NCBI GenBank assembly: GCA_963836235.1
Contig: CAWIIP010000004.1
Span: 199,281 to 263,280, forward strand
Origin: an uncultured Pseudomonadota bacterium
GTDB lineage: Bacteria; Oederibacteriota; Muellerivitia; Muellerivitales; Muellerivitaceae
Reading direction: 5' to 3'
DNA: 64,000 bases
Position 1 is the first letter of the stretch; each line of letters begins with the position of its first letter. Shown here in pieces: positions 20,276 to 37,591 of the stretch. Position numbers and translations under genes: made by a program. Below the pieces are notes generated by a model that made no database searches, was not told where the DNA came from, and saw nothing but the letters and a program-made list of their open reading frames with translations.

Positions 20276-20422
20276 GGGTAACCAACGGCCACCTTCGCCG
20301 GTGTGTCTTCGTGACCGAAGGTGGCGGGCTTTGGAACAGGATGGAAAGGTAGGTAGTGGTTTTTAAGGTCTGGCTCCGAGGGCTCGCCCTCAATTCGTGA
20401 AAGAATTATTCGTTATTCCTCC

Positions 20423-20444
20423 GAAGCCGGAAGGCTTCTTTTCG
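20423..20444 (+). terminator. candidate intrinsic terminator
   Basis: GAAGCC-GGAA-GGCTTC hairpin followed by TTTTCG. Confidence 0.35.
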
Positions 20445-20528
20445 TCAATCAGGCCCTTGCCGTTATAATGCCTTTCAAGCCGATTCTGAAAGAGGGTAAA
20501 ATTGATGAAATTGTGAGGGGGAATTTCT

Positions 20529-23156
20529 GTGCCTAAATATTTACGGCTCTACAACCAATTTGTTAATTTCGTAAAAATGGTGGAGAAAGAATTAACTACC
20601 GATTACGAACGTAAACTCATCAATCTAATTTTGGAGGATTTTGACGCGATAAAGGACAAGAAAGCCACCAAGGGTTTGCGGGGGAAACACCTTTACGAGT
20701 TGATTAAGAAAAAAGGAAAAAGTGTTTCGCCTACGATCACGGTTTCTTCGACTAACACTCAGTCAGGTGGGTTTTCTTTCGTCGGTCTTGATTCCATTGT
20801 GGTAGAACATTTTCGGGGGTTCTCCGAAAAAGAGACATTCAAATTCGACCGTCCATTCACGTTTGTCTTCGGCCCAAATGGAAGCGGTAAATCCAGCCTC
20901 TGTGAAGCGCTCGAATTCTCCATGCTTGGATACATCCAGGAAGCAATAGCCAAAGATATCGACGTCCAAGAGTACACGACCAACTGTTTCGATGAAAAGC
21001 AAAGTGATCCCGTCCTTAAGGCAAAGGATGCATCGGGGAATATCATCGACATTTCCCAGAACCAAGACTTGCAATTCTGTTTCATAGAAAAAAGCCGGAT
21101 CGAAAGCTTTGCAAGGATTTCAGCAAACACCCCGAAAAAGATGGAGGAGCAACTCGCAACATTGTTTGGCCTGGATGAGTTCAACGAATTTGTCGGAGAT
21201 TTTAACAAGAAGGTTGACGATTATTTTGAAATGGATTCTCTTAAGGCAAGGGAATATGAGGCCAAAAGCGCCGGGATGCCGGGCATTAGGGAGAACCTGG
21301 AAGGGGAAAAAAAGAAGAAGGGGGAAGCAGAAGCCAAGATTGCTGAAATTGTAAAAAACTCCGGGATTCCCTCGGTGGGGGATTTCGAATTTGCGTTTGT
21401 AAGCCCGAAAACAGGAACTAAGACCAAACTGGAAGAAATGAGCGAAAAACTTTCAGCGCCGACGTCCCAATCTCTCGTTTTTCCAACGGTTATCAAAATA
21501 GTGGAGGATATCAAGGCGGCGAAAACCGCTTTGGTTCCGCTAACCGCAATTCGGAGCCAGTTGACCTCCCGCAAAAAAGAATTCCAATTCCGCGATCTTT
21601 TCGAAGCTGCGTCCGTAGTTGAAACTTTATGGACAGAATCCTGTCCCCTGTGCGAAACGCCAATGGATGAAGTCCACAAACATCCATACGACAACGCCCG
21701 TGCCAAACTGAAGGAACTGGAGACACTTGCCGCTTTTGAAAATCAGGAAGAAAAAGATTATGAGATATTTTTGGAAAAGATAGACGCCATGGATAAATCC
21801 ACCGAATCTTTCAACGCTGTCCTGGTCTCCAATGGGAAAGATTCCTTTCAGTTCGACGCCATCCCTTGGCCCGGGAAGAACAGGGCGGACAGGGATCTTG
21901 CCATTGCACACCACGAAACGGTTGAAATATTTACAAACCAAAGAATGAAAGAATTGGTCGAGGCGGAGGCTTCATTAACAGCAATTAATTCCAAGATTCA
22001 AGACGAAATGAAAGCAAAAGCCGTTCTTCGGGCTGAATACGAACGGCTAAAAATTGAAAAAGACAGTTATATACAAGAAAAAGCTAATGTGAAAAATTGC
22101 GATGACCGAATCCAACAAGCGGAAAAAACGATTGCAACTTTTGAAGCCGAAACAGCCACTCTGAAAGCAGAGGTCCAGTCAGAAAAGGAACGTATTGACC
22201 AAAATAAACTATGGCTTTCGGCTTACGATAGCTTTAAGGAAAAGCTCGACGTCTATAAAGATCAACTACCCCTCAGGTACGTACAAAAACTCAGCGAGCT
22301 TACGTGTTCGATCTACAACCAATTAAATCAGCATGACCGGGAATATGAAAAGGCGTTATCAATTGATCTTCCTAAAACCACTGCCGATTCCATCAAGATA
22401 GAATTCGCCAAAAATCCCGGTTCTAAATTTGATGCCTTGCTTGTATTAAGCGAAGGGCATCTGCGGTGCTTAGGGCTCTCGATACTCATGGCGAAGAACA
22501 TTGATGACAATTGCCCGGTGATAATTTTTGACGATGTGGTTAATGCAATCGACGACGAACATAGGAGCGGAGTGGCCGACCTCCTCTTTGAATTTGATCG
22601 GTTGCGGGGTAAACAGATAATACTAACGACCCACGCTGAACATTTCATATCCGACCTTCAATTGAAAGTGCCGGCCCAGAACAAGAAGGATTTGATTCAT
22701 GTCTATAATTTTCAATCAGATGAAAAAAGGCGGAAAATAAATATTGATTCCAAATCCCGGAATCATCTTGAACGCGCCGATGAACATTATTCCGACGGAC
22801 GAATGGACGATACGCTTCATAGCTGTAGGTTGGCACTTGATAACATTGCCGAGGCTTTATGGAAAAGACTATGGAAAAAGGGTTATGCCGCAACAATTAG
22901 GGTTCCTCTAAGAGAACTCCATGCCAAGCCGGATACAAAAAATGCCATCGAAGCATTGAAATCCTTCATCAAGACTAAGAATGTTACTGAATTTATAGGG
23001 ACTGATGAGCATTTTGAGTATTTGTTACAGGAGGATGTCTGGAGCCAATTTAATATTGCTTCTCATGAAATGGGAGGTAAACCGACTTTCAACAACGCCA
23101 TCATTAAGGAAATTGTGGGTAGGTGTTATAAGATCGATGCGATTGTAAAAAGCTAA
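20529..23156 (+). CDS. SMC/Rad50/SbcC-like ABC ATPase with zinc-hook-like CPLC motif
   Basis: Walker A FGPNGSGKSS. Long coiled-coil with a central CPLC (Rad50-hook-like). Signature LSEGHLRCLGLSILMA. Walker B/D-loop IIFDDVVNAIDDEH. Extra C-terminal domain of about 170 aa. Confidence 0.65.
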   Translation: MPKYLRLYNQFVNFVKMVEKELTTDYERKLINLILEDFDAIKDKKATKGLRGKHLYELIKKKGKSVSPTITVSSTNTQSGGFSFVGLDSIVVEHFRGFSEKETFKFDRPFTFVFGPNGSGKSSLCEALEFSMLGYIQEAIAKDIDVQEYTTNCFDEKQSDPVLKAKDASGNIIDISQNQDLQFCFIEKSRIESFARISANTPKKMEEQLATLFGLDEFNEFVGDFNKKVDDYFEMDSLKAREYEAKSAGMPGIRENLEGEKKKKGEAEAKIAEIVKNSGIPSVGDFEFAFVSPKTGTKTKLEEMSEKLSAPTSQSLVFPTVIKIVEDIKAAKTALVPLTAIRSQLTSRKKEFQFRDLFEAASVVETLWTESCPLCETPMDEVHKHPYDNARAKLKELETLAAFENQEEKDYEIFLEKIDAMDKSTESFNAVLVSNGKDSFQFDAIPWPGKNRADRDLAIAHHETVEIFTNQRMKELVEAEASLTAINSKIQDEMKAKAVLRAEYERLKIEKDSYIQEKANVKNCDDRIQQAEKTIATFEAETATLKAEVQSEKERIDQNKLWLSAYDSFKEKLDVYKDQLPLRYVQKLSELTCSIYNQLNQHDREYEKALSIDLPKTTADSIKIEFAKNPGSKFDALLVLSEGHLRCLGLSILMAKNIDDNCPVIIFDDVVNAIDDEHRSGVADLLFEFDRLRGKQIILTTHAEHFISDLQLKVPAQNKKDLIHVYNFQSDEKRRKINIDSKSRNHLERADEHYSDGRMDDTLHSCRLALDNIAEALWKRLWKKGYAATIRVPLRELHAKPDTKNAIEALKSFIKTKNVTEFIGTDEHFEYLLQEDVWSQFNIASHEMGGKPTFNNAIIKEIVGRCYKIDAIVKS

Positions 23157-23195
23157 TGACTTGACAACGTGTCGCTAGTAAACGACAATTGATTC

Positions 23196-23546
23196 ATGGA
23201 AGCTAGGCCCCGGACCGTTATCAACTACGCAAAACTCGACGGGGTCGAACCGGTCGATGTTTGGTTCCGTAACTTGAAAGACTTGGTAGGGAAGAAGGCT
23301 GTTTCGGACAGGATTCGAAGGGTCCGGCTGGGCACTTTGGGCCACGTTGATAATATCGGGCAAGGTGTTTGGGGGTTGAAGATTGACGTGGGGCCGGGTT
23401 ACAGGGTCTATTTCGGCCAGGACGGCCCTGTGTTAGTTATCCTTCTTTGTGGAGGGGAAAAGCACGGCCAGGACAAAGATGCGGCTACGGCCAGGGAACA
23501 TTGGGCAGATTATAAGAGTCGAAAGCAGAAGGAGCATGGAAAATGA
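23196..23546 (+). CDS. type II toxin (HigB/RelE-like, addiction-module killer protein family)
   Basis: VGQGVWGLKIDVGPGYRVYFGQDGPVLVILLCGGEKHGQDKD is the killer-protein family signature. 4-nt overlap with the next gene. Confidence 0.65.
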   Translation: MEARPRTVINYAKLDGVEPVDVWFRNLKDLVGKKAVSDRIRRVRLGTLGHVDNIGQGVWGLKIDVGPGYRVYFGQDGPVLVILLCGGEKHGQDKDAATAREHWADYKSRKQKEHGK

Positions 23547-23899
23547 AAAATAAAAAAGCCAATTCCCCGATGGGCGGTGAATTTAAAGACACTGTTGTCC
23601 GTGAGCTACAAGAGGATTCCGCATTCCGCGAAGAATATCTTAAAGACCTTTTGATAGAACAAGACCTACCTATGTTAGCTCTCGGTTTACGTGACCTTGT
23701 GGAAGCTCTAGGAGGGATCGGGAAGCTGGCAAAGGAAACCGGCCTCAACCGGCAGAACCTTTACAGAGCCCTTTCCGGGAAAGTACGCCCGGATTTTCCG
23801 ACCCTTTTAAAAATTATTAACTTCTCTGGATTCGACCTTTCCATCCAGAAGAAGTCAAAAGGGAAGCCGTCGGGCCACACCTTGGCTTTGGCGAATTAA
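23543..23899 (+). CDS. HTH antitoxin (HigA-like addiction-module antidote protein)
   Basis: ETGLNRQNLYRALSG is an HTH. It sits immediately downstream of, and is coupled to, the toxin gene. Confidence 0.65.
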   Translation: MKNKKANSPMGGEFKDTVVRELQEDSAFREEYLKDLLIEQDLPMLALGLRDLVEALGGIGKLAKETGLNRQNLYRALSGKVRPDFPTLLKIINFSGFDLSIQKKSKGKPSGHTLALAN

Positions 23900-23904
23900 C
23901 TTCA

Positions 23905-24957
23905 ATGGAAGAAACGTGTTTATTTTGTGGCCAAAAAGTTTTAGTGGAAACTATCCATAACGGGCCATCTAAAAATAATCCAATTTGCCACAAGTTTAAT
24001 TGTCAAACTTGTGGCCTCCACATCCTGTCCAACGCAGTGCACGCCAAAAAGAAATCCGGTCAATTATTGGGTACTCCTCAAGAATTGGTGAATTGCGGTT
24101 CTAAATCTTTGGAGGTGAAAAAGGAATATCCAAAAAAGATTTCGTATTGGGTATTAGACGAAAATTCTCCCCAAGTAGAAGAGTTGAAAAATCATCCTGA
24201 AGTAGTTGTGTGTGTTTTTGAAGAAATAAAGCATTCAACTGTAGAACATGCAAATAAACCTTATGTTTTATTGGAACAGATTTCCAAAAGGGCTTCAAAA
24301 GATGGGGCTTATAAATATTCCCCCGTACTTAAGGAGGATGTTTGTTTTTCAAAAATTCCTGATTTGGAAGAATTGAAAACGTTAATAACCTTTTTGGTTG
24401 AAAAGGGATTGGTTCAACAAAAAGGAACTTTTAGTGATGAAGATTTGGCTAGAAAAGATATTTCTCCTCATAATGTCCGTTTAACTGTTGAGGGGTGGGA
24501 TTTCATTTGGCGGAAGAACTCATTTCCAAATACAAATAAAGTATTTATTGGAATTCAGTTCAATTGGGAAGATGAATCGTTGCGTGAAGAAGTTCTTAAA
24601 TCTATTAAAAACGCCTGCAAAAAAAACAACTATGATGCAGATATTGTTACTCAGGATCACACAGGGAATGTAACGGATCAAATAATATCAGAGATTAAAA
24701 AATCAAGATTCATGGTTGCTGAATTAACTTATAACAACAAAGGTGTCTATTTTGAATCCGGTTTTGCCCGAGGTTTAGGTATGCCAGTTTTTCATTTAAT
24801 TCGCGATACACATATAGACGGGAATGATAATGAAGGGAAAAAGATTCATTTTGATATTCAACAAGTAATGTATCGTAAATGGAATGACCCACAGGAATTA
24901 GAAACGGAACTGGATTCTTGGATCTTCGGTACTATTGGCCCTTTTGAAAAATCCTAA
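23905..24957 (+). CDS. zinc-ribbon protein with C-terminal nucleoside 2-deoxyribosyltransferase-like (NDT/TIR-like) domain
   Basis: N-terminal CxxC...C..C. C-terminus VFIGIQF...DIVTQD...SRFMVAELTYNNKGVYFESGFARGLGMPVF resembles the NDT-fold FE.GyA.GlGkPV motif. Confidence 0.45.
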   Translation: MEETCLFCGQKVLVETIHNGPSKNNPICHKFNCQTCGLHILSNAVHAKKKSGQLLGTPQELVNCGSKSLEVKKEYPKKISYWVLDENSPQVEELKNHPEVVVCVFEEIKHSTVEHANKPYVLLEQISKRASKDGAYKYSPVLKEDVCFSKIPDLEELKTLITFLVEKGLVQQKGTFSDEDLARKDISPHNVRLTVEGWDFIWRKNSFPNTNKVFIGIQFNWEDESLREEVLKSIKNACKKNNYDADIVTQDHTGNVTDQIISEIKKSRFMVAELTYNNKGVYFESGFARGLGMPVFHLIRDTHIDGNDNEGKKIHFDIQQVMYRKWNDPQELETELDSWIFGTIGPFEKS

Positions 24958-24985
24958 AAGAAAAACGAAAGGGGCTCAATAAAGC

Positions 24986-25375
24986 TTATTCCCTGGATTT
25001 CGCCTCGAAAGAATGATCCCTAATCCTTTTCTTGATTGATTTGGTTAGTTGGATTTCCCAATACCGAAACCAAGTTTTTTGACCTTTTTTGGATTTATGG
25101 TGGGGAAAGGTAGGGGCTATCAGGTATCCAGCAAGGTCAATGGCTAAGTCTTCAACCGGTTTTTCCACTTTGAAACCTCAGTCGTTTTCTGGCCCAAATA
25201 AACAATACCGCATGGAACTAGGAACTCGGTCTTTACCTTCGTAAACAATATGTCCTATCCGCCAGCGTGTCACCCGAAGGCATTTCAAAAGGGCAAAATC
25301 GGAATTAAGGGCAAAGGTTGGGTAAATAGCCCCAAGTCGGCCATTCCTAAAGAAATATAGAAAATCAGACTCCAA
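24986..25375 (-). pseudogene. possible disrupted gene (two same-frame ORFs separated by an in-frame TGA)
   Basis: ORFs 25178-25375 and 24986-25168 are in the same frame on the minus strand with a TGA at 25178-25180 between them. No recognisable family. Confidence 0.25.
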
Positions 25376-25394
25376 AGTGTCCTCTTTTATAACA

Positions 25395-25408
25395 ATATCT
25401 ATAGATAT
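25395..25408. promoter_or_regulatory. perfect 14-bp palindrome ATATCTATAGATAT (candidate operator) upstream of the XRE regulator
   Basis: Exact palindrome. A TATAAT-like hexamer lies at 25423-25428. The start codon is at 25446. Confidence 0.4.
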
Positions 25409-25445
25409 TTCTTATAATAACCTCCTCCCACATATCTTGTAAAGC

Positions 25446-25670
25446 ATGAAAAAGTCCAAATACGTTGAAGTCCTAAAGTTTGGAGATAATGTCAGGCGTT
25501 TACGGATAAAAAAAGGTTTTACCCAGGAAGATTTGGCCGAATTAACGGGATTACAAGCCGCTTATATCGGTTTTGTTGAAAGGGGAATAAGGTCTCCATC
25601 AACTCGGACCACCGCCAAGCTTTACAAGGCTTTGGGTTGCAAGCCCAACGACTTGTTCAAGGGAGTTTAG
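25446..25670 (+). CDS. XRE-family HTH transcriptional regulator
   Basis: KKGFTQEDLAELTGLQAAYIGFVERGIRSPS is a Cro/C1-type HTH. Confidence 0.7.
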   Translation: MKKSKYVEVLKFGDNVRRLRIKKGFTQEDLAELTGLQAAYIGFVERGIRSPSTRTTAKLYKALGCKPNDLFKGV

Positions 25671-25808
25671 TTGTCCGCGAACGGTCAGTCCTGTCAAAAA
25701 GGAGGCTGATTTTAAAAAACAACTCTTTTAAATTTCTGCTCTTGCCCAGAAGGTTTGAAAGTTTTATTATTTTATTAAGGAAGGTTTAACCTGTGTAGGC
25801 GGCAGATA

Positions 25809-26279
25809 ATGAAACTTTTAGGCGATCTTTTTTCCAACATATTTCTTATTGGCCTTGTAGTTTTCCTTGGCGTCTTTTGCTTGATGATGGTCTTGGGCGG
25901 TATTGCTTTTATCGGCAGGATTTTGTTTTACGTTTTTTATCCCCTCTATTTCCTAACATTAAAACCGGCCATTTGGGCATTTAGTTCAATTTTTCAAAGT
26001 CGTTGCCCTCAATGCAAAGGGTTCTTCAAAAGAAAGTTAATCGATTTTGAAGTCGCCAGCGAAGAGGAAATTAGAAAGACAGTAAACCGCATTGATCGGG
26101 GAACCATCTATTCCAACAGGCTTTTTGTTCCAAACATGGGTTATGAAGCCAACCGTAAGGAACAGGTAACCGTAATTCAAAAGACGATTCAAAACCATTG
26201 GGAATGTAAAAATCCTACTTGCGGTCATAAGTGGCTTTCCGAAGAATTCATGGAATACGAAGGTTCCTTGGAAAATTAA
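25809..26279 (+). CDS. membrane-anchored zinc-ribbon protein, hypothetical
   Basis: Two N-terminal TM helices, then CPQC ... CKNPTCGH. Confidence 0.35.
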   Translation: MKLLGDLFSNIFLIGLVVFLGVFCLMMVLGGIAFIGRILFYVFYPLYFLTLKPAIWAFSSIFQSRCPQCKGFFKRKLIDFEVASEEEIRKTVNRIDRGTIYSNRLFVPNMGYEANRKEQVTVIQKTIQNHWECKNPTCGHKWLSEEFMEYEGSLEN

Positions 26280-26407
26280 TAGTTAGTCCCTCGTCCTCTA
26301 CAATCCCGGTCTAATTAAGTTAAATACCCAAAATGTCTTTTGGTTGATTGCGCCGAAAAGGTTAGAATCGTTTGGCGTTTGAAACCTAGAGGGTTGGGGG
26401 TTCTTGA

Positions 26408-28027
26408 ATGGGTTCAATATATTTAAACGGGTTGAATGTCGAGCAAAGGAAAGCTTTGGTCGAAAAGTTATTTAAAACACAAAATGGTAAGTGTTTTATT
26501 TGTGAAAAGGAAATTGACCTAACTCTTCATTCTGATTCGGTTGACATAGACCATGTAGAACCACAAAAAGTTGGGGGAAAAGATGATCCGAGTAATTTTG
26601 CTTTAACCCATGATTCCTGTAACAGATCGAAGCAAGCAAGTGATCTGCGAGTTGCAAGAGTTCTTTCTCGTTTCGAAAAGATTAAAGAAGAAGTAGAAGC
26701 GGCAGTAAATCGTGGCCCGAATTTAAGTGATGTTCTGCAAAGGTACCAAGGGGCAAGGTACGACCTCCCAATGAAAATTGAAGACGGTTACATTTCTTTT
26801 TCTTTTCCAGATTTAAAGATTAATCAAATTGTTAAAGTTCCCTTATATAAGGATGAATTAAGCGGCCTTCAATATTTTTTTGCAAAATTACCAATTGAAT
26901 ATTTGTTCCATGATGATCGTGTTAATCCGAGATCAGTAGGAGGAAGTCTTCATGGATTGGTGGAGGAGTTTCATAGGAAACGACCCCAACTTCAAATTGG
27001 ATTGGCTTGGTCCGAATTAAAGGGAAGCGACGTTCGAGGAAAAATTCAAGTTTTCGATGGACAGCATAAAGCAACCGCCCAAGTGTTGCTTGGGACCAGG
27101 GAAATTCCATTACGAGTTTTTTTAAACCCCAATTTAGATATTTTATTAACGACAAATACGAATGCAGGTACTACGTTACGCCAAGTGGCTTTTGACAAAT
27201 CAGTCCAAAGACACTTGGGGAGCGCATTGTTTGCGGATCGAATTCAAAGGTATCGAAAAGACCGTGGTTTGAAAGATGACGATGAGAATTTTTCTGAAAA
27301 AGATCTTGTCAATCACTTCAGGGGTGAATGGCGAGAAATGAGAAAATACATTCTTGATGCGGTAAGAGATTACATTACTCATAACGTAGAAAATAAATTA
27401 AAAGATTATGTGGATTTCGCCGGCAAAGGTAAGGAGAAGCCTTTGTCATATAGCACAATGGAAAAAACATTTTATTCTTTTTTTATTTTACAAGAAGCTT
27501 TGGAAACTCCTTTAAATTATCGTTTAGATGAGAATGAAAACCCTCGGGAGTTAGAGAAACAACAAATATTGCAATTGATGAATTTAATTGCTGAAAAAAT
27601 TTATATCGGTCGTTTTGACCCTGCATTAGGTACAGCTAGAATAGAAAACAAAATTCAAAAAGGCGAGGATGTTCCCGAACCACATTTGATAGCTTATCGG
27701 TTGAGTCGTGAAGAAATAATTTATACTTGGTTAAAGATTGTGAGAAACATTGCGCATAATTATTTCATCATGACCGGAAAATCAATCCATGAAGAAAAAC
27801 TCTTTCAATACAAGTTTCCTGAACCTTTATGGGACAATATTGAGAATTTCCTTGTGAATTTAACCAAGATGCCATTATGGATTAACCGGGATCTTTCTTT
27901 ATCAGTGTTTGGCGGTAAACAAAATAATGAATATTGGCAAACGATTTTCGAGACTGGAAAGACACCATCCGGACAAGCGGTTTTACCGGCGGGTGTAAAT
28001 TTCATTAAAATGATTCAACAAAGTTAA
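26408..28027 (+). CDS. HNH endonuclease fused to DGQHR-like (DndB/ParB-Srx-type) domain protein
   Basis: N-terminal HNH (CFICEK ... IDHVEPQKVGG ... HDSCNRSK). Central VFDGQHKATAQVL, a DGQH(K) variant of the DGQHR motif. 539 aa. Confidence 0.55.
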   Translation: MGSIYLNGLNVEQRKALVEKLFKTQNGKCFICEKEIDLTLHSDSVDIDHVEPQKVGGKDDPSNFALTHDSCNRSKQASDLRVARVLSRFEKIKEEVEAAVNRGPNLSDVLQRYQGARYDLPMKIEDGYISFSFPDLKINQIVKVPLYKDELSGLQYFFAKLPIEYLFHDDRVNPRSVGGSLHGLVEEFHRKRPQLQIGLAWSELKGSDVRGKIQVFDGQHKATAQVLLGTREIPLRVFLNPNLDILLTTNTNAGTTLRQVAFDKSVQRHLGSALFADRIQRYRKDRGLKDDDENFSEKDLVNHFRGEWREMRKYILDAVRDYITHNVENKLKDYVDFAGKGKEKPLSYSTMEKTFYSFFILQEALETPLNYRLDENENPRELEKQQILQLMNLIAEKIYIGRFDPALGTARIENKIQKGEDVPEPHLIAYRLSREEIIYTWLKIVRNIAHNYFIMTGKSIHEEKLFQYKFPEPLWDNIENFLVNLTKMPLWINRDLSLSVFGGKQNNEYWQTIFETGKTPSGQAVLPAGVNFIKMIQQS

Positions 28028-28086
28028 TCGAGATTTAAAACTTAAATTTCCAATTTAGATAAATTAGGAAAAATGGGAGTGTTTTT

Positions 28087-31000
28087 TTGTCTATAAAGAG
28101 GTTGGACAAAGCCTTAACAAATATTTTTAAATCCTATTTACGGGATGTTAAAAGTCTCTTAAATGAGTCTGCGAAAACCCACCGTTTTGTTGCTTTGGTA
28201 TCCGAACTCTTTCCAGGAAACCCCGTAATTAGTGATCTTGCATCGAGCATAGAAAAGAACACTTTGCGAATTGATGAAAATAAGAAGCTTGCAAAGGGAC
28301 GTATCGATTCTTATTACGGAAACGCAGTTATTGAATTCGAAAATTCTTTAAAGGTCACAGGCGCTCATGCTGAGGAACAACTAAAAGGGTATGTTGCTGG
28401 TATTTGGATTAAAGAACATCCAAAGCCCGGAAAGGAATTTCGACCTTTAATTGCAGTGGCTTCTGATGGAATTGTTTGGCGAATTTATCGACCGGTATTT
28501 GTTTCCTTGGATAATGGAATCCCGAATGTCAGACTTGATAAACTTCAGGATTTCATTCTTACAGAAGATAACCTGGATGAATTTTGGGTTTGGCTTACGA
28601 GTTTTTTATTTAGGCCACAGCAAATTGAACCTACCGCGGAACAATTTAGAAGAGATTTTGGAGCTTCAAGTCTGGCCTTCAACGAGGGGAAAGAGGCGTT
28701 AAGACAAGCATGGAAAGAAGCTCAAAAAAACAAAGAAATACTTTTAGCTTTTGAAACTTGGAAAAAGTACCTGACCTTCACTTATGGTCGGCTATCCTCC
28801 GAAGACGATTCTCAACTTAACAATGAACTTGTTGAATTGTTTTTAAAACATACTTACTTAGCTTGTTTGGCAAGGCTACTAATTTGGGCTTCGCAGTCGA
28901 AAGGGAAAGTCGGAGAAGATATAAGAGGAATGATTCATCAGATCATTTCCGGGGTTTATTTTGTTTCAAGAGGATTAGCCAACTTAGTAGAGAATGATTT
29001 CTTTCAATGGACTCGTGGTGAACAAGCCGACATTATCCTGTATCCCATTTGGGAAAGGATACTTGTTCAATTACTAACTTATGATTTGCGGTCAATGAAG
29101 GAGGATGTATTTAAAAGTATCTACCAAGAATTAGTTGACCCAAAAGACAGGCATGATTTAGGGGAATATTACACACCGGATTGGTTATGCGAACGATTAG
29201 TCGAGGAATTATTGCCTAAAAGGGGGTTCGTATCTGTTTTGGACCCAAGTTGTGGGTCTGGTTCATTTTTAAGAGCGTCAATTTCTCATCTCCTAAAAAA
29301 TAACCCTGGATTATCCAAAGAAGAAAAGCTTAACCAAATTCTCCAAAATGTTGCCGGTATTGATATTCACCCTTTGGCTGTCACGATTGCGAGAGCAACA
29401 TATGTTTTGGCACTTGGGGACCTTATGGCGACAGTAAAAAGACCTATTAGGATTCCTGTTTATATGGCGGATTCACTTTTCTTACCAGCGGATGTTACTC
29501 AAACAAGCATTTTTGAAGATGAAAGTATTGGGATAGAACTTAGTTTCGGCGGGGAAAAGGTAATTATCCCGGATGAATTAGTTAAAAATCCTGATCTGTT
29601 TGACAAAGCAATTTCCTCCTCCACAAAAGTAGCTGTCGATCACGCCATTTCCGGGAAAGAGAACTTAAATAGTTTGAAAAGCTTCTTAGAAAAAGAAGCT
29701 CCGGCAATTGGTAAATTTAAAAACAAAAAGAGTGTTTATACTTCTTTGTGGTCTTACGTTGAAAAACTTACCAGGTTAATAACTTTAAAGCAAAATTCAA
29801 TTTGGGATTTCATCATAAGAAATGCTTATAGGCCTGCCATGATAAGAAACCATTTTGATGTAATTTTAGGAAACCCCCCTTGGTTGTCGTATCGTTACAT
29901 TGAGAACCCCGAATACCAAAAAGAAATTAAACGACTGGCAGTTGATGAATATAAAATCGCGCCGAAATCACAAAAACTTATTACCCAAATGGAATTGGGT
30001 ACTGTTTTTTTGGCACATAGCTTAACGGCGTTTGGAAAAGAAAAGGCAAAGCTTGGTTTTGTTCTCCCGAGAAGTGTTTTAGGGGCTGACCAGCATTCAA
30101 ATTTAAGATTAAGAAAATATTTTGCCCCTATTCGTTTGACTGGGTATTGGGATTTAAAAGGTGTACACCCGTTATTTCGGACTTTATCTTGTGTCCTTTT
30201 TGCAGAACACAATGAAAAAAAGGGGAGTATTGGGGATAGTCTTGATGTCTTGGAATGGGAAGGTGCTCTCGAGGAAAAAGATGTTCGATGGGAAAAAGCC
30301 AAAAAATCCCTGAAAGTTGTAAAGGCTCTTGGACGAGTCAGATTTCACGGCAATAGCAATGCTTTCACTACAAAGGAAGGAAGTTTAGAAGAACAAAAGG
30401 TAAGTACGTATTCTGCCCGGTTTAAACAAGGGGCAACACTTGTTCCCAGAAATTTTTATTTTGTTAACGTTAAAGATTTAGGGAAAAAGGTCGAACCGAA
30501 TAAACTTTATTGGGCAGAAACAGATCCTGAGCAAGCAAAGCAATCAAAGCCAACTTATAAAGAAGTAAGAATGAGCGGTCATGTCGAAGGACGATTCATA
30601 TTTTCTACGGCTTTGGCAAAACACTTACTCCCGTTCGTTTTATTGGACACCCCAAAGGTCGTATTGCCTTCAGAATACAAAAATGGATATTTTAATGTTG
30701 TTACTTCAGAAGAATTGAGACAAAACGGTTTTAGAGAAATGGCAGAATGGATGTCGAAAGCGGAGAAGATTTGGAACAAAAAGAGGGAAGACAAGGCTAT
30801 AAACCAAACGGCTTATGAAAGAATTGATTATCAAAAAGGAATTTCTGCCCAAAGTTTAAATCAAAGATACCTTGTACTTTATAATGCGGCAGGGAAAAAC
30901 ATTTCTGCTGCTTACTTTGATAGGAGCACCTCTCCATTGCCTTTTATTGTAGAGAGCAAACTTTATTGGATGGACTGCGCTTCAGTTGAAGAATGTGATT

Positions 31001-31308
31001 ATGTCAGCGCCATCTTAAATTCTGAGATAGTGAACGAAAGTATGAAACCATTTCAATCCGCAGGATTACTTGGCGAAAGAGATATTCACAAAAAAGCTCT
31101 TGGATTACCAATACCCGCATTCGACCCAAAAAATATTTTGCATAAGGAAATTGCTGATCTTGGTAAAGCTTCTAGAATTAAAGCGGCGACTTTGGTAAAT
31201 CCGAAATTTCTCGAATCATCTTTAGCGAAACAAAGAGGAAATATTAGGGAAGGTGTAAAAGAAATTCTTGATAAAATTAATCCTTTAGTTAAAGGCCTTA
31301 TTACTTAG
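28087..31308 (+). CDS. large gamma-class N6-adenine DNA methyltransferase (type IIG/PglX-like architecture)
   Basis: GEYYTP (motif X), VLDPSCGSGSFL (motif I) and ILGNPPWLSY (motif IV, NPPW). 1073 aa with N-terminal extension of about 330 aa and C-terminal extension of about 450 aa. Confidence 0.7.
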   Translation: MSIKRLDKALTNIFKSYLRDVKSLLNESAKTHRFVALVSELFPGNPVISDLASSIEKNTLRIDENKKLAKGRIDSYYGNAVIEFENSLKVTGAHAEEQLKGYVAGIWIKEHPKPGKEFRPLIAVASDGIVWRIYRPVFVSLDNGIPNVRLDKLQDFILTEDNLDEFWVWLTSFLFRPQQIEPTAEQFRRDFGASSLAFNEGKEALRQAWKEAQKNKEILLAFETWKKYLTFTYGRLSSEDDSQLNNELVELFLKHTYLACLARLLIWASQSKGKVGEDIRGMIHQIISGVYFVSRGLANLVENDFFQWTRGEQADIILYPIWERILVQLLTYDLRSMKEDVFKSIYQELVDPKDRHDLGEYYTPDWLCERLVEELLPKRGFVSVLDPSCGSGSFLRASISHLLKNNPGLSKEEKLNQILQNVAGIDIHPLAVTIARATYVLALGDLMATVKRPIRIPVYMADSLFLPADVTQTSIFEDESIGIELSFGGEKVIIPDELVKNPDLFDKAISSSTKVAVDHAISGKENLNSLKSFLEKEAPAIGKFKNKKSVYTSLWSYVEKLTRLITLKQNSIWDFIIRNAYRPAMIRNHFDVILGNPPWLSYRYIENPEYQKEIKRLAVDEYKIAPKSQKLITQMELGTVFLAHSLTAFGKEKAKLGFVLPRSVLGADQHSNLRLRKYFAPIRLTGYWDLKGVHPLFRTLSCVLFAEHNEKKGSIGDSLDVLEWEGALEEKDVRWEKAKKSLKVVKALGRVRFHGNSNAFTTKEGSLEEQKVSTYSARFKQGATLVPRNFYFVNVKDLGKKVEPNKLYWAETDPEQAKQSKPTYKEVRMSGHVEGRFIFSTALAKHLLPFVLLDTPKVVLPSEYKNGYFNVVTSEELRQNGFREMAEWMSKAEKIWNKKREDKAINQTAYERIDYQKGISAQSLNQRYLVLYNAAGKNISAAYFDRSTSPLPFIVESKLYWMDCASVEECDYVSAILNSEIVNESMKPFQSAGLLGERDIHKKALGLPIPAFDPKNILHKEIADLGKASRIKAATLVNPKFLESSLAKQRGNIREGVKEILDKINPLVKGLIT

Positions 31309-31375
31309 TATTAAGATTATTCTGAGCTTGACCGAGACTTAATTTGGTAGTTCGGCACCAAATAAATAAATGGTT

Positions 31376-31861
31376 TTATTTTAAAAATTCTTTAGCCAAT
31401 TCCTTTGCGTTGTAAACCAAACAAGGCCATGTCCCTCCATCTTTTGGGGGTATTTGAAAAACCCAAAACATGAGTTTCGCATTATCATCGGGTAAAATAA
31501 GTAATCGAAGTTGTTCCTTTGTAAAACCCCGGACTACATAATTTCTTTTATCTTGTTCTGAACGGGTGGAACGAAAAATTTCTGCATCTGTTTCTCTGAA
31601 AAAAATAGGCATTGCCATTTTGAAAGGCGTTGGTCCCACAAGCAATACATAATAGTTCCCAGTTATTCTCCCCTTGGACAATTCCATCAATCCCCAAAAT
31701 GGCTGACCTTCCACGTTTTCATCAGGTAATAGTTTTTTTATTCGTTCACGAAAATCACTTAAAAATTCCTTTTTTTCTGTTTCCGACAAAACCCTATGGG
31801 GTGAAAAATTCCATTTAAATTGTTTTGCAAAAAACTTTAGGTATTGCATTAAAGCTTTCAT
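31376..31861 (-). CDS. hypothetical protein
   Basis: 161 aa. 4-nt overlap with the upstream HTH gene. Confidence 0.35.
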   Translation of the reverse strand: MKALMQYLKFFAKQFKWNFSPHRVLSETEKKEFLSDFRERIKKLLPDENVEGQPFWGLMELSKGRITGNYYVLLVGPTPFKMAMPIFFRETDAEIFRSTRSEQDKRNYVVRGFTKEQLRLLILPDDNAKLMFWVFQIPPKDGGTWPCLVYNAKELAKEFLK

Positions 31862-32211
31862 TTTGGGTCTTTGTCCCTTTTGGGATTCGAATCATTGGGG
31901 AAAAAATCATGTATTGAACAACACAAAGCTTTCGCAAGCCTGTACAAGACCCAAGTTGGAATTTGGATTACTTTTTTACGTTCCCAACGTTGAACCGTCC
32001 TGGGCGCCACTTCCACCTTTCCAGCAAGATCCTCCTGAGTGATCCCTTTTTTGATCCTCATTTCGGCTATCCGATGTTGGATTTCTTTTAAAAATGAATT
32101 TTCAGAAGGGCTTAAATTGGACATTTTTGAATAGTATTTCACGCAAAATACTCTTTCCACGACCTCTGGGGTCGTGGTAAAAATTTTTGAATAATTGAGA
32201 ATTACCTCCAA
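31858..32211 (-). CDS. XRE-family HTH regulator (true start probably the internal M of MSNLSPSE)
   Basis: IKKGITQEDLAGKVEVAPRTVQRWE is an HTH. Divergent from the lipoprotein gene. Confidence 0.5.
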   Translation of the reverse strand: MEVILNYSKIFTTTPEVVERVFCVKYYSKMSNLSPSENSFLKEIQHRIAEMRIKKGITQEDLAGKVEVAPRTVQRWERKKVIQIPTWVLYRLAKALCCSIHDFFPNDSNPKRDKDPK

Positions 32212-32296
32212 GTCATTCGGGCAAAAACCATTAGAAAGCTCAAATAAAGCTTTCGGTTTAACGGGGGAGGCCCGCCCTGGACTTATGGAGGGTTAT

Positions 32297-33385
32297 ATGA
32301 AAAAGAATTCCGCTATCATTTTGGGAATATCGCTGGTCGTAATTTCCGCTTTTATTTGCTCAATAGGCTGTAAAAACAGCGGCCCTTCAACCCCTTACGA
32401 TATTGGATTTACCCCAACCCCTGTCCGTATTTATGGGCCAGTTAATGCCTTTGTTGAGGATAAAGGGATTGCTGTCCCCAACCTGTTGGTTCAGGCGATA
32501 CCCCCTTCCGGTGTGACAATCTTCAGCCAATCCACCACGGCAAGCGGGATTGCAACCTTTAACCCGCCTTATCTTGAATTGGGGAATTGGACTTTTGTGG
32601 TTCCGGCCCAAACCCCGTTCCCCTATGCCCCTAGCACCATCACCATGCCCGTGTCAGTCGTCAATGAAACGGCCAACTTCAACACGGCGGGGGCTACAAT
32701 TTATTTGACCCCGACTGTGCCGGAATCTTTCACTTCAACCAACCCCGGCTCCCCCTATACCTACAGCATGATTTACAGCCAGCCCGGAAATTTGTTCATT
32801 CCGGGAAAAATCGCCTTTTCCGGATTTCCAACAAATTGGAGCGCGTCTTACGGACCAGCGACGATTGGATATGGGAATTCCGACACCGGCTCCGTTACTG
32901 TTGTTGGTGTCAATTGTGTGGACAGGCAACCCAGTTTCGCAGTGACCGCTCTCGATTTGGAACCAACGCCTTATCCCCGCGCCAACAGTTCACCACAGAC
33001 CATCACCAAAAGTTTCACATCGACGGTCACCGTTACTTGGAACACGACTGGGTTGAATTCCGATTTCTGCAACAACGGAACTGCAATTGGAATCGTATAT
33101 GGAACCCTTACTGTTTCAACTTCCAATGCTTGTTCTTACGATGCCGTTGTTTCAGTTTCAATGAACGCGGGGAATTGTTGTTACAGCCAATTCCAGACAC
33201 CCAATGGAAACGTCTCAGCCGCGAATTGTGGCGGGGGTGGAGTTAATTTTGGACCGGGGTCCTATAACTGCACTGTCCTGAGTGGTGCCACTTGGGGAGC
33301 CCTTAATTGTTCCTTCAACGGTGTCTCACATACCGTGAACGTTCCGACATCGGGTTCTGTCCAGCTTTTAAGCACAAGTTACTAA
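32297..33385 (+). CDS. Thr/Ser/Cys-rich lipoprotein, hypothetical
   Basis: ATG at 32297 follows an RBS. Signal peptide plus lipobox (AFICSIGC). The table ORF starts earlier, at 32195. Confidence 0.4.
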   Translation: MKKNSAIILGISLVVISAFICSIGCKNSGPSTPYDIGFTPTPVRIYGPVNAFVEDKGIAVPNLLVQAIPPSGVTIFSQSTTASGIATFNPPYLELGNWTFVVPAQTPFPYAPSTITMPVSVVNETANFNTAGATIYLTPTVPESFTSTNPGSPYTYSMIYSQPGNLFIPGKIAFSGFPTNWSASYGPATIGYGNSDTGSVTVVGVNCVDRQPSFAVTALDLEPTPYPRANSSPQTITKSFTSTVTVTWNTTGLNSDFCNNGTAIGIVYGTLTVSTSNACSYDAVVSVSMNAGNCCYSQFQTPNGNVSAANCGGGGVNFGPGSYNCTVLSGATWGALNCSFNGVSHTVNVPTSGSVQLLSTSY

Positions 33386-33397
33386 GGGGCCTGGATT

Positions 33398-34153
33398 ATG
33401 AAATATCTACCGGCACTTTTATTGATTTGTTTGATTTATGGATGCGGAAAAGGCCCTTCTGGACCGACCGGGCCTCAAGGTTCCCCTGGTACGGGTATCC
33501 CTTCATTTCAATTGGAATTCGAGCAAGGGATATTTCCCGACGCCGGATATTCCGGAGTTGACACCCACTGGCTGGATGGAAGCAATCCCAATACAGCGCC
33601 GGGTACGGGGGAGATTGAAGTAGCCACCGGAACAACCACCTCGAATGTGGCTTTGGGGTTAGTGAGGTTCGACCTTTCTTATGGCATTCCATCAAACGCC
33701 ACAATCACCGGCGCAAGTCTGGAATTAACAACCGAAACCGGTTCGATCCTTTCAGGCGGGACTTATGTTTTTGGCATCCATCAAGTCATCCAGCCACCTG
33801 CCGGGCAGGTGCCTTGGAACGACTCAAGTACATGGAATGTTTTGGTAACCCCATATGGTTGGGACGGGGGGACCAGTTCTCCCGTTACGGCGGGGGCCGA
33901 TTACAACTCGACCCCGATGGACGCTGTGACTGTTACCGCCTCGCAGGTCAACGCAACCCAAATTCTCCTAGCTTGGAATATCACGCCTGCCCTTGCCCAG
34001 GTTTGGGTGAACAAAGCCAATAACAATTACGGAGTTTTGATTTCGCCGGAACCAGAAATAAGCGGGTCGGTTTCAGGCTTTATTTCGTTTTGGGATAACA
34101 CGGGGAACTCCCAACAAAAACCAAAGATGATTGTTTCTTACACCATTCCTTGA
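33398..34153 (+). CDS. secreted lipoprotein with DNRLRE-like carbohydrate-binding-type domain
   Basis: Signal peptide/lipobox LLICLIYGC. Collagen-like GPTGPQGSPG. VALGLVRFDLSYGIPSNATITGASLEL ... WNDSSTW pattern as in DNRLRE-domain proteins. Confidence 0.4.
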   Translation: MKYLPALLLICLIYGCGKGPSGPTGPQGSPGTGIPSFQLEFEQGIFPDAGYSGVDTHWLDGSNPNTAPGTGEIEVATGTTTSNVALGLVRFDLSYGIPSNATITGASLELTTETGSILSGGTYVFGIHQVIQPPAGQVPWNDSSTWNVLVTPYGWDGGTSSPVTAGADYNSTPMDAVTVTASQVNATQILLAWNITPALAQVWVNKANNNYGVLISPEPEISGSVSGFISFWDNTGNSQQKPKMIVSYTIP

Positions 34154-34162
34154 GGTGGATAT

Positions 34163-35380
34163 ATGAAAAAGAGAATATCTATTTTTGTGGTCCTGATTTT
34201 ATTTCATTCGGTGATGGCTTATGCCAAGACAAAACCGAAAACCACCCCTACCCCAAGCCCAACTTCAACCCCGGAACCTAAGCCCCGGTGGGTCCCGCCA
34301 CCCTATGTTGGCAACGACTCCAAAGTCCTCAATGCGACTGTTGCGGCCCATTACGAGAGTGCCGCTTCCGGGAACCTTGGCTATTCCTTATTCGACCTTT
34401 CTGGTATCCGAAAACTCGACGAGAACGACGTTTCGGCCCAAGGGACCGTCCGGTTCATGAAATATTTTTCCAGTTCGGATGATGTAGGGGAACTCCAATT
34501 GAGGGAAGCCAATCTTTCCCTTTCCGAGCCCTGGATTGAAGTAAGGTTGGGCCGGATGGATTTGTCCGATATCGCAAGTACCACCCACTTTTTTGGGCGT
34601 TATCCCTTGATGGGTTTGAGGCGATTGGACGGGATCAAGGTTTATATCCCTTTCAAGTTTTTCTTCGGAGTTGAGGATTACAAGAGCGTTTCAAGCCCGC
34701 CGACATCGTTAAGCTTTTTTTATTTTCCAACCCTTCTTTCGGCCCAGGACGCTGTCATTGACGGTTCCCAAGGTTATTTCATGGGACAGGCCCGCATGAA
34801 ACTCAATTTCGGGGATATTCGGACAGTCCTTCTTTTCAACATGGGGGCCAGCTCGTCGGATGATTTTGAATACTCCTCCATGAGTGGGAATCCTGCCTAC
34901 TCCATTTGTGGGGAGGCCAACTTCAGCAGGGATTACACCCTTTACTTCGAATACGGGGTTCAGGATTCCGCCAGGTCGGGCGATACGAGCGCATTCACAT
35001 TTGGGGGAAAAGCCGAGCATCTATTTACCTTCGACTTCCTCTCCCTCGACCAAGTCATTCTGGAAGTCCAAGTTCCGATTGCCAACAATCCCAATAATCC
35101 ATTTACAGGCGGGAACGGCATTGATCCGGCATCCGCAGTACTCCCTCAGACCGCTTTGTATGGGAAGGCGCGGATTCGAATTCGGTCTATTTTCATTGAT
35201 TTCAACATCACTGATTCTTTGGGCGATTTCACCTTCGCTCGGTTGAATCCCAACAACATCAACACACCTTTACCCATGCCGGTGGGTGGGGGGAATGAGA
35301 CGGACGGCCTGGAAATCCCGCTTCTCTCATCCGGTTACAACAACTACGCCTTCAGCGTGGATACGGGGGTTCAGTTTTGA
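34163..35380 (+). CDS. secreted protein, possible outer-membrane beta-barrel
   Basis: Signal peptide MKKRISIFVVLILFHSVMAYA. Alternating beta-strand pattern. C-terminal ...VDTGVQF ends in Phe. Confidence 0.35.
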   Translation: MKKRISIFVVLILFHSVMAYAKTKPKTTPTPSPTSTPEPKPRWVPPPYVGNDSKVLNATVAAHYESAASGNLGYSLFDLSGIRKLDENDVSAQGTVRFMKYFSSSDDVGELQLREANLSLSEPWIEVRLGRMDLSDIASTTHFFGRYPLMGLRRLDGIKVYIPFKFFFGVEDYKSVSSPPTSLSFFYFPTLLSAQDAVIDGSQGYFMGQARMKLNFGDIRTVLLFNMGASSSDDFEYSSMSGNPAYSICGEANFSRDYTLYFEYGVQDSARSGDTSAFTFGGKAEHLFTFDFLSLDQVILEVQVPIANNPNNPFTGGNGIDPASAVLPQTALYGKARIRIRSIFIDFNITDSLGDFTFARLNPNNINTPLPMPVGGGNETDGLEIPLLSSGYNNYAFSVDTGVQF

Positions 35381-35883
35381 AAGGGGCATTTCTTTTCATC
35401 ATTTTTTGGTTTGTTTCCAGGGCCTTGGCCCAGGACGGCAACCCATTCACGGACGTCCGGGACAGGGACCAATGGTCTATAGAACAGGTTATGGAGCATA
35501 AAGCCCCCGTGGATTCATGGGATGGAAGTTCAAATGAAGGAGGCACCCACCGGGGAAAAAGACCTGCTCCAATTGCTCCCCCAACCGCGACTCCTTTTCA
35601 AACTAAATCTTACAACTTCCAAACCGAAACAGACGAGGCCAAGGTCGGCGCATCCATTACGGATAACGGTTCCAATTTCACCATAGATATTTCCTGTGAC
35701 CAAACGATCCAGGGTTGGCTTTTGAAATTCCAATCAACCAAGCAGGTTTTCCTGAAAGGGGGGGCGCCCACGGATAACCCTTACAAATGCCGGATCGCGG
35801 TGGACCGGCCCTATATCAGGGACTTTGGACTGACCGTTTATGTCACCCAAGACAGTGATCCGGCTTTTATCCAACTCTTTTAG
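35377..35883 (+). CDS. secreted protein, hypothetical
   Basis: Signal peptide FLFIIFWFVSRALAQD. 168 aa. Confidence 0.35.
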   Translation: MKGAFLFIIFWFVSRALAQDGNPFTDVRDRDQWSIEQVMEHKAPVDSWDGSSNEGGTHRGKRPAPIAPPTATPFQTKSYNFQTETDEAKVGASITDNGSNFTIDISCDQTIQGWLLKFQSTKQVFLKGGAPTDNPYKCRIAVDRPYIRDFGLTVYVTQDSDPAFIQLF

Positions 35884-35892
35884 GCGGTAAAG

Positions 35893-36342
35893 ATGGAAAA
35901 CCAAATACAGAAGTCGGAAAACTTAAAGACTTTTCATCCTTCATTTTATCAATGTACGCCCGTGCTTTTTCTCCCCTTTCCGTTGTTTCTTTTTGTCCTC
36001 TTGGGAGTCCGGCTTTATTACATCCTAATGCTGTTTTGGTTCATGGAAATGTCGTTTCTTTTATTTATCTGGGTTTACCTCACAACCACTCTCTACGTCA
36101 TCAGGCCCGACCGAATTGAAATCAAAACCGGGATATTCGTTAAGCGGTCAAGAACCGTCCCTTTCGACCAAATCATAAATATCACCTGCAAACAGAGCAT
36201 TGCCCAAAGGCTTTTTAGGATTGGGGACATTTTCATAGACACTCCCGGAGGGAAACCTTTTGAGTTGGCTTTGGCGGGGGTCGAGAGACATGAAGAGATG
36301 GCGGAATTTCTATTTGCCTTGAAAAAAAGAGGCAATCCATGA
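35893..36342 (+). CDS. bPH_2 (YdbS/YdbT-like) membrane protein
   Basis: Two TM helices, then IRPDRIEIKTGIFVKRSRTVPFDQIINITCKQSIAQRLFRIGDIFIDT, typical of bacterial PH domains. Confidence 0.45.
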   Translation: MENQIQKSENLKTFHPSFYQCTPVLFLPFPLFLFVLLGVRLYYILMLFWFMEMSFLLFIWVYLTTTLYVIRPDRIEIKTGIFVKRSRTVPFDQIINITCKQSIAQRLFRIGDIFIDTPGGKPFELALAGVERHEEMAEFLFALKKRGNP

Positions 36343-37205
36343 AGGTCATACTTCTTTGTTTTTTGATGTTTAGTGGGGCTTGCCAACTGGTTTTGGCCGA
36401 CACAACTTCCGACGATCCTAAAACGGAAGAGGCGTTGAGGAACAATGTCATCGACTTTAGGGATTGGTTGATGAAACAACTTTCCCAATTTCCCAAAGCC
36501 GACCCGCATAAAACAGGGATGATCCTAAGAAATTATGCATCTCTTCCAAGAAAGAACCGGGTCATCAATGCCAACCAATACAACCAAGCGGCCAAATCAG
36601 ATTGGGTGAAAGGCCAAGTTTTGCAGGGCCTTTCCACCTTGAGCCAACAGCTTGCCAATACCGCAGGGACGGCTTTAGCTCCTCAAAGCGCAAGCCAGCT
36701 TCAACAATACTCGACTCAATTGGGTCAAAGTAACGATCCCCAATTCCAACAGGTTGGAACTCTTTACTCCCAGGAAGCCCAGGCCTTACAAGCAGGGAAC
36801 ACCCAGGGGGCCAACCAAGCGGCCAGCCAGGTCGCCGCCGTTCCCCAGCCCAATGTCCCGCCAGGATACCAACCCACCCAAAACGAAACATCACTGGCCG
36901 CGACCCTTAACCAGATCACCGGAAGCCTTATCGGTGCGGTCGTTGAGGCAGTTATCGCCATTTATGGCGGACCGGTTGCGGCCTCCCTGTTTTCACCGGC
37001 AATTATGTCGATTTTTGGGGGTGGGCAGAATACCGGAAGTGCCCTAGCAACAGCGCCGAACCCCGCAACGGCGCTTAACACGGGGGGAGTCAATGTCGCA
37101 CAAACGGGAGGGGGAGCGTTGATGCAACAGTTGGGTAGTGTGAATGTCAAACCGCTTCAACCCCAAAATTCCGCAAATGCCGGTGCCGCACCACCGGCCC
37201 AATAA
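36339..37205 (+). CDS. secreted Q/A/N-rich low-complexity protein, hypothetical
   Basis: Signal peptide MKVILLCFLMFSGACQLVLA. Gln/Ala-rich repeats. Confidence 0.35.
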   Translation: MKVILLCFLMFSGACQLVLADTTSDDPKTEEALRNNVIDFRDWLMKQLSQFPKADPHKTGMILRNYASLPRKNRVINANQYNQAAKSDWVKGQVLQGLSTLSQQLANTAGTALAPQSASQLQQYSTQLGQSNDPQFQQVGTLYSQEAQALQAGNTQGANQAASQVAAVPQPNVPPGYQPTQNETSLAATLNQITGSLIGAVVEAVIAIYGGPVAASLFSPAIMSIFGGGQNTGSALATAPNPATALNTGGVNVAQTGGGALMQQLGSVNVKPLQPQNSANAGAAPPAQ

Positions 37206-37228
37206 ATATCAATGATCGGAGAAATTAA

Positions 37229-37591
37229 ATGAAAAAAAGAAACTTTATCAATTCTATAAAGCAGGTAGGGATGACGGGCTATCTCCTCATTCTTGCGGAT
37301 AAGGCCAATGCACAAGCGATTACCAGTATGCCGGAACTTTCCCCGATAAAACTGATGATCCTTTTTGTACTGGATGCTTATGGGGTTTGGAAACTATTGC
37401 AATGCGTTAAGAACGTCTTGGATCACCTCGCCGATTCAAGTAAGGGTGATCCGGCGGCTAAAGATCGGATTTGGGGAAGCGTTCTGGCTTTCATCGGGAT
37501 ACTTATGGTGGGGGTAATGGTCAATGTTTTAATTCTCAAAGCGGGAGAATTTGGGGCGAGGCCGGTTAGTTCTGTCCTGTCCGGGAATTGA
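37229..37591 (+). CDS. TrbC/VirB2-like T4SS pilin (putative)
   Basis: Long signal peptide ending ANAQA, then two hydrophobic helices separated by a short polar loop. 120 aa. Position upstream of VirB6-, VirB3- and VirB4-like genes. Confidence 0.4.
   Translation: MKKRNFINSIKQVGMTGYLLILADKANAQAITSMPELSPIKLMILFVLDAYGVWKLLQCVKNVLDHLADSSKGDPAAKDRIWGSVLAFIGILMVGVMVNVLILKAGEFGARPVSSVLSGN

Follow-up and report, generated by a model that had tools for sequence, protein, structure and literature searches.

We analysed two adjacent genes in a 64,000-nucleotide stretch of DNA from an uncultured Pseudomonadota bacterium (the window; contig CAWIIP010000004.1 of assembly GCA_963836235.1, positions 199,281 to 263,280 of the forward strand). 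Gene 1 (26408–28027) encodes a 539-residue protein that joins an N-terminal HNH nuclease domain to a domain carrying the pentapeptide DGQHK. Gene 2 (28087–31308) encodes a 1073-residue N6-adenine DNA methyltransferase (MTase) with long extensions. A preliminary description of this DNA proposed that the two genes form one restriction-modification (RM) system. Our results point elsewhere: gene 1 and gene 2 are probably self-sufficient defence modules that act independently and came to lie together by chance. The two-gene proposal fails because homologues of the genes do not co-occur and because gene 2 looks self-contained.

To assess co-occurrence, open reading frames (ORFs) within 9 kb of gene 1 homologues were collected at 80 loci, and counts are given for the 79 loci besides the window. 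A relative of the window MTase adjoins the gene 1 homologue in only one of them (L014, detected by tblastn), where it is 34% identical to gene 2 and placed first, the opposite of the gene order in the window. At another locus, L076, a match to the MTase core lies three genes away on the opposite strand. Viewed from the other side, gene 1 adjoins none of the relatives of gene 2 at 80 metagenomic loci; the sole candidate exception is a partial match to the HNH gene 3 kb away (L090). The Nitrospira copy of gene 2 stands alone. Clustering of the ORFs at the 80 gene 1 loci revealed no conserved neighbour, nor was one found for the gene 2 relatives at the 80 metagenomic loci. The other proteins of the surrounding islet (156, 350, 161 and 117 residues, and an SMC-like protein) have no tblastn match in any locus. 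The preliminary description had itself named a lack of co-occurrence, and a self-contained gene 2 acting independently of its neighbour, as outcomes that would speak against its proposal.

The question remains whether gene 1 is associated with DNA methylation in a looser way. Using a local iterative hidden Markov model (HMM) for gamma- and beta-class DNA MTases, we found such an enzyme within 9 kb of gene 1 in 23 of the 79 loci, and directly adjoining it in nine, often overlapping or separated by less than 50 nt; the other 56 loci have none within this distance. DNA MTases amount to a few genes per genome, so adjacency in 12% of loci is a strong enrichment, well above the level for a random gene, yet it does not amount to dependency. 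This enrichment weighs against a purely chance arrangement and leaves room for a looser functional link to methylation. Two further points also weigh against independence. First, the common strand, the 59-nt spacing, the lack of a predicted terminator between the genes and their similar low GC content (0.365 for gene 1, 0.379 for gene 2) fit co-transcription in this element; the promoter and terminator scan is itself uninformative, as it returned no more sites than shuffled sequence. Second, L014 is another case of both families side by side. If the genes did form one system, the giant MTase would mark host DNA, and the HNH-DGQHK nuclease would be guarded by, or dependent on, that methylation; SspE and DndI show that nucleases combining ParB-like and HNH domains can read host modification. 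However, the 56 loci without a gamma- or beta-class MTase inside 9 kb and the absence of gene 1 beside relatives of gene 2 are difficult to reconcile with such a system. In addition, the MTases that do occur near gene 1 belong to unrelated RM types (IIG, III and I), whose specificities are expected to differ, and gene 2 retains invariant nuclease residues of its own. We consider a joint system unlikely.

Gene 2 has the layout of a single-chain type IIG/IIL RM enzyme similar to MmeI and DrdV. Both genes are on the plus strand. According to the ORF list and translation, gene 2 starts with TTG at 28087, with GGGAG 6 nt upstream, and gene 1 with ATG; one gene caller places the start of gene 2 five codons downstream, giving 1068 residues. 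A PD-(D/E)xK-like nuclease domain at the N-terminus (residues ~56–160; 28252–28566), delineated by invariant columns and a weak match to MmeI_N, is followed by a helical spacer (residues ~161–330; 28567–29076) seen in the secondary structure of the AlphaFold2 model. In MmeI, the catalytic residues are D70...E80-M-K82 and the spacer spans residues 156–300 (PMC4833311), a similar layout. The gamma-class MTase domain occupies 29077–30126, with motif I (DPSCGSGSF) at 29242–29268 and motif IV (NPPW) at 29872–29883. The remainder, residues ~681–1073 (30127–31305), is modelled as a mixed alpha/beta target-recognition domain (TRD) and a C-terminal helical bundle (helices 1017–1072), and has no Pfam match. 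The characteristic motifs of the protein are IDSYYGNAVIEFENSLK (residues 73–89), GEYYTP (359–364), DPSCGSGSFL (386–395) and NPPW (596–599), the last three giving the MTase motif order X-I-IV. The MTase domain matches the Pfam families N6_Mtase (E=2.7e-10) and Eco57I (E=8.2e-10), and its matches among PDB sequences are HsdM proteins. With a TRD of its own, this layout needs no separate S or R subunit.

Is the N-terminal domain a nuclease, or is gene 2 only a methyltransferase, either an orphan or a part of a BREX- or MADS-like system? The family comprises more than 2900 homologues of ~1060–1085 residues. D74, E83, F84 and E85 are invariant in 22 of its sequences, including a relative that is only 33% identical. 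The excised N-terminal third matches MmeI_N weakly (E=0.013, residues 58–154), and the top PADLOC model for the whole protein is the type IIG restriction enzyme-MTase (E=5e-77), whose match covers residues 62–671 and thus includes the region N-terminal to the MTase. Two observations count against an active nuclease: the motif reads D...ExE and not D...ExK, with E85 in place of the catalytic lysine, and the loop of residues 56–78 has low confidence in the AlphaFold2 model. BamHI provides a precedent, as its catalytic motif is also D...ExE. Like BREX PglX and MADS MAD2, gene 2 is a large gamma-class N6-adenine MTase with long extensions, with local HMM and fold similarity to both. However, the NCBIfam scores fall far below the cut-offs (18–39 bits for the PglX models against 400–900, the best being 39 against 400; 60 bits for MAD2 against 720). 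In the scan of ten ORFs around the pair, and around the relatives of gene 2, no BrxA/B/C, PglZ, BrxL or mad1–8 partner was found; the relatives have no conserved neighbour. A MADS-like islet was also considered, in which the SMC-like ATPase, the MTase and a helix-turn-helix (HTH) protein weakly match mad3, mad2 and mad1; this candidate was rejected, as its matches score well short of the cut-offs and LmuB is a better fit for the SMC-like protein. Gene 1 itself matches no mad model. We regard a role restricted to methylation as improbable.

Gene 2 is thus very probably a type IIG/IIL enzyme, judging from its motifs and modelled fold. Of the two comparisons offered in the preliminary description, the one with type IIG enzymes held, as did the suggestion of a nuclease-like N-terminal region, and the one with PglX did not. 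Its similarity to characterized enzymes is distant. About 590–600 residues align with MmeI (type IIL) and DrdV (type IIG) at only ~15% identity, and the Pfam MmeI models stay below their thresholds, which sets gene 2 apart from MmeI, DrdV and BpuSI. Compared with MmeI, the protein is ~150 residues longer and has the spacing D-x8-E-x-E instead of D-x9-E-x-K. By homology and fold, the TRD would recognise a specific site, at which the MTase would methylate adenine for self-protection of the host, and the N-terminal PD-(D/E)xK-type domain (D74, E83, E85) would cut unmethylated foreign DNA at a distance. From its sequence, gene 2 looks like a self-contained RM enzyme of a known kind, one further MmeI-like lineage.

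In contrast to gene 2, most of the gene 1 protein has no recognisable family. The exception is its zinc-finger HNH domain (residues 1–100; 26408–26707), which matches PF01844 over residues 29–76 above the Pfam cut-off (33.7 bits against 21.4, E=4e-8). It carries the motifs CFICEK (29–34), IDHVEP (47–52) and HDSCNRSK (68–75). Its residues C29, C32, D48, H49, N63, H68, C71 and N72 are invariant in 23 close relatives. The nearest local matches of this domain are the HNH domains of Cas9, IscB and retron-type proteins. Outside the HNH domain, ~440 of the 539 residues (~80%) have no match in Pfam, NCBIfam or PADLOC. The AlphaFold2 model, with a predicted local distance difference test score (pLDDT) of 80, divides this part into three regions. 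A beta-rich connector (residues ~101–170; 26708–26917), with five predicted strands (E120–168) and no Pfam match at E<=10, leads into a predicted ParB/sulfiredoxin (Srx)-fold domain (residues ~171–262; 26918–27193). The C-terminus, residues ~263–539 (27194–28024), forms an all-helical domain of ~275 residues, with no sequence or fold match.

The FDGQHK motif (residues 216–221; 27053–27070) is located in the ParB/Srx-like domain, together with NPR (173–175), KRPQL (191–195) and NTNAGT (250–255). Its position is analogous to that of GCHR in Srx and DGQQR in GmrSD, and nucleotide binding is putative. Work on GmrSD has treated DGQQR and DGQHR as equivalent to the FG/SGCHR nucleotide-binding signature of sulfiredoxin (PMC4619093). 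Taking this equivalence together with the position of the motif, the preliminary assignment of a ParB/Srx domain holds at the level of the predicted fold, but the label DndB-type was too specific. Pfam and NCBIfam HMMs for DndB, DGQHR, DUF262 and ParB do not match the whole protein at E<=0.1; the excised DGQHK domain has no such Pfam match at E<=10; and 22 divergent family members show none at E<=5, one of them having a weak match to GmrSD_C (DUF1524, E=0.1). A profile of the ParB-like core of the family gave only chance-level matches against all PDB sequences. In its other descriptive points the preliminary description was accurate: the two genes are adjacent on one strand in an AT-rich islet, every motif it quoted was found in place, its HNH assignment exceeds the family cut-off, the HNH domain precedes the DGQHK domain, the reverse of GmrSD, and the scan of ten surrounding ORFs revealed no BREX, Dnd or specificity-subunit gene.

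Gene 1 belongs to a tight, widely transferred and unstudied family. It has more than 2345 homologues of ~537 residues, with 63–78% identity among the best 120, and a search of 185,579 species genomes found it in ~350 stretches. Members occur in Acidobacteriota, Verrucomicrobiota, Chloroflexota, Proteobacteria, Bacteroidota, Actinomycetota, Planctomycetota and several archaeal lineages. Residues 101–539 were also used in an exhaustive phmmer search against 1.84 billion representatives, which yielded only 485 proteins. In every near-full-length match the matched region begins at approximately residue 100; therefore, among these matches, the HNH region is always attached and the architecture is fixed. 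Residues Q219, H220, N250, A253, L257, Q259, E297 and R380 are invariant down to 24% identity, indicating that the ParB-like DGQHK core is the most constrained part of the protein. K221 is kept in at least 90% of the family, and one member has AQHR. DGQHK is a conservative variant of the nearly invariant DGQHR pentapeptide that defines the DndB/DGQHR domain, and not that pentapeptide itself. In a few distant members (P0255 and P0269) the HNH motif is degenerate, with D-R or A-Y for D-H, and FDGQHK or LDGQHK and the ParB-like core are intact. Two others of ~365 residues (P0316 and P0332) begin after the HNH domain and connector and may be truncated or HNH-less forms. The family matches no PADLOC system. 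A 2025 survey of ParB-CTPase fusions was built on PF02195 (PMC12704722), which does not match this family; the family was thus out of its reach.

The neighbours of gene 1 in the 79 loci are a mixture of housekeeping and defence genes that differs from locus to locus. The defence families include N6_Mtase, Eco57I, ResIII, SNF2, AIPR, PLD, NucS and AAA_21. Also present are type IIG/DrmMI-like and DrmD-like proteins, type III mod/res, type I MTase, Mokosh MkoA/MkoB and AbiU. In four loci (L027, L032, L043 and L058) the gene 1 homologue overlaps the 3' end of a type IIG/DrmMI-like gene of 1657–1908 codons, and a 4-nt overlap with a type III res gene is seen in L028. By analogy with GmrSD and BrxU, which are known as residents of BREX loci (PMC12839542), this would be the behaviour of an autonomous resident of defence islands. 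Gene 1 recurs inside RM operons of several types and may therefore provide a back-up, one that detects modified DNA of invaders or a breakdown of the adjacent RM system.

Some of these neighbourhoods show a recurrent or repetitive organization. L043, L058 and L032 share an island (~2000–20600 in each) that contains, in this order, a DrmD-like SNF2 helicase, a 1657-residue type IIG/DrmMI-like enzyme and the overlapping HNH-DGQHK gene. The island continues in L043 and L058 with MkoA, MkoB, a 447-residue protein without annotation and a DruE-like helicase; in L032, the genes downstream of the HNH-DGQHK gene fall into other clusters. In L048 (9761–15340; compare L055, 4521–12278) a type III mod gene has its first ~48 codons in three copies: one ahead of the HNH-DGQHK gene, one between that gene and an AbiU-like gene, and one at the start of the intact mod gene. 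The pattern suggests successive insertion of cassettes at the mod 5' end. In L023, L033 and L052 the HNH gene lies between direct repeats of 78–230 nt.

The closest parallels to gene 1 are GmrSD, BrxU, SspE and DndI. Like these proteins, gene 1 combines on a single polypeptide a ParB/Srx-fold domain (DGQ-x-[RK]) and a His-Me-finger nuclease, and is found in defence islands, inside or beside loci of the RM, BREX and DISARM types. It differs in several respects. The HNH domain comes first and is of the zinc-finger PF01844/Cas9-like type, whereas theirs is DUF1524; the motif is DGQHK, where theirs is DGQQR; and gene 1 has in addition the beta-rich connector and the private 275-residue helical domain. 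No Pfam match to DUF262 (GmrSD_N) and no PDB-profile match to GmrSD, BrxU, SspE or DndI was obtained. In layout, gene 1 is a domain-permuted, uncharacterised variant of the known design that pairs a ParB-fold switch with an HNH cutter, and its sequence has no detectable similarity to the known examples.

DndI depends on the arginine of DGQQR for both defence and ATP hydrolysis, and it nicks DNA with its HNH domain (PMC11662687). By analogy with DndI, SspE and GmrSD, binding or hydrolysis of nucleoside triphosphate (NTP) in the ParB-like domain of gene 1 may gate the HNH domain. The protein would attack foreign DNA, and its target could be modified, unmodified or recognised through the private helical domain. 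We give even weight to the view that gene 1 is an NTP-gated defence nuclease. More tentatively, the family may represent an unrecognised class of single-protein, nucleotide-switched defence nucleases, an independent, domain-permuted reinvention of the GmrSD/SspE/DndI design that has been transferred between bacteria and archaea.

Could gene 1 instead be a selfish, free-standing mobile nuclease of the homing-endonuclease type, spread by cleaving new sites and being copied into them, with no role in defence? Its very high conservation across phyla and domains (a Methanocellaceae copy, for instance, is 64% identical), the variation of its neighbours and the short direct repeats of the flanks that bracket the gene in L023, L033, L048 and L052 are consistent with this idea. 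However, such flanking repeats are found in only ~7 of the 80 loci, and we observed neither a conserved insertion site nor a conserved non-coding flank when a signature of a mobile element or guide RNA was sought. The family is not found among the plasmids of PLSDB or the phages of INPHARED, and occurs at 3 loci among the 2.9 million viral contigs of IMG/VR. Moreover, large ParB-like and helical domains are unexpected in homing enzymes. A homing function is quite unlikely.

The DGQH-[RK] motif on a ParB/Srx-like fold, nearer to DGQHR than to DGQQR, is shared with DndB/DGQHR proteins (PF14072, TIGR03187) and DpdB, but it is very unlikely that gene 1 serves a phosphorothioate (Dnd/Ssp) or 7-deazaguanine (Dpd) modification cluster elsewhere in the genome as a DndB-like regulator or accessory factor: no DndB/DGQHR model of Pfam, NCBIfam or PADLOC matches it or its 22 divergent relatives; its ParB/Srx-like domain is fused to an HNH domain whose invariant catalytic residues appear intact; and it is not linked to dnd or dpd genes, as Dnd, Ssp and Dpd are missing from the recurrent neighbour families of the 79 loci (single occurrences are possible), the DpdE matches near gene 1 are cross-hits of DrmD-like SNF2 helicases, and the ten ORFs around the pair have no Dnd, Ssp or Dpd match save a weak cross-hit of the SMC-like ATPase to a DndD model. 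DndB has been described as a regulator and not as a nuclease, unlike the role predicted here for gene 1.

The evidence gives no support to a compact two-gene system, which would have represented a new layout for RM. The value now lies in the gene 1 family itself, whose more than 2300 sequences come from many phyla of Bacteria and Archaea and lack family annotation over four-fifths of the protein. If it is an NTP-gated nuclease, gene 1 adds a candidate for single-gene defence. It would also be a second, independent case of an HNH cutter coupled to a ParB-fold switch, and would help to define what such coupling needs. The MmeI-like lineage of gene 2, with its D...ExE variant of the catalytic motif, has practical interest for the discovery of new enzyme specificities.

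Both genes are part of the cargo of a mobile element, as the window resembles an integrative conjugative element (ICE). The region 15338–46568 is mostly ICE-like and encodes UmuC (15338–16609), the anti-restriction protein ArdC (18684–19565), DUF2958 (19925–20275), TrbL/VirB6 (37551–39512), a VirB4/TraG-type ATPase (39800–42367), a TPR-GGDEF protein (43314–44786) and a tyrosine integrase (45459–46568). Beyond the integrase, at ~47 kb, the GC content climbs and housekeeping genes start. Within the element, the islet that contains gene 1 and gene 2 (23905–32211) has a GC content of 0.375, compared with 0.471 at 32212–47000 and 0.528 at 15000–20500.

Several other genes of the element may be noted. 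The stretch 20529–24957 encodes an 875-residue SMC/Rad50-like ATPase, with LmuB as its top PADLOC match (E=3.5e-26) and a weaker match to mad3 (E=1.9e-20); no recognisable Lamassu effector lies beside it. Next come a RelE/ParE-HI1420 toxin-antitoxin pair (23196–23899) and then a 350-residue protein (23905–24957) with weak similarity to nucleoside 2-deoxyribosyltransferases/TIR-like domains at its C-terminus. Small XRE-type HTH proteins of 74 and 117 residues (25446–25670 and 31858–32211, the latter on the minus strand) flank the islet genes, and either could regulate its neighbours; the 117-residue protein weakly matches models of RM control proteins and RmrA. A second low-GC stretch of the element encodes a 602-residue protein with a ThiF/E1-like domain (2826–4634) and a 491-residue fusion of a GNAT acetyltransferase with an EVE domain (7472–8947).

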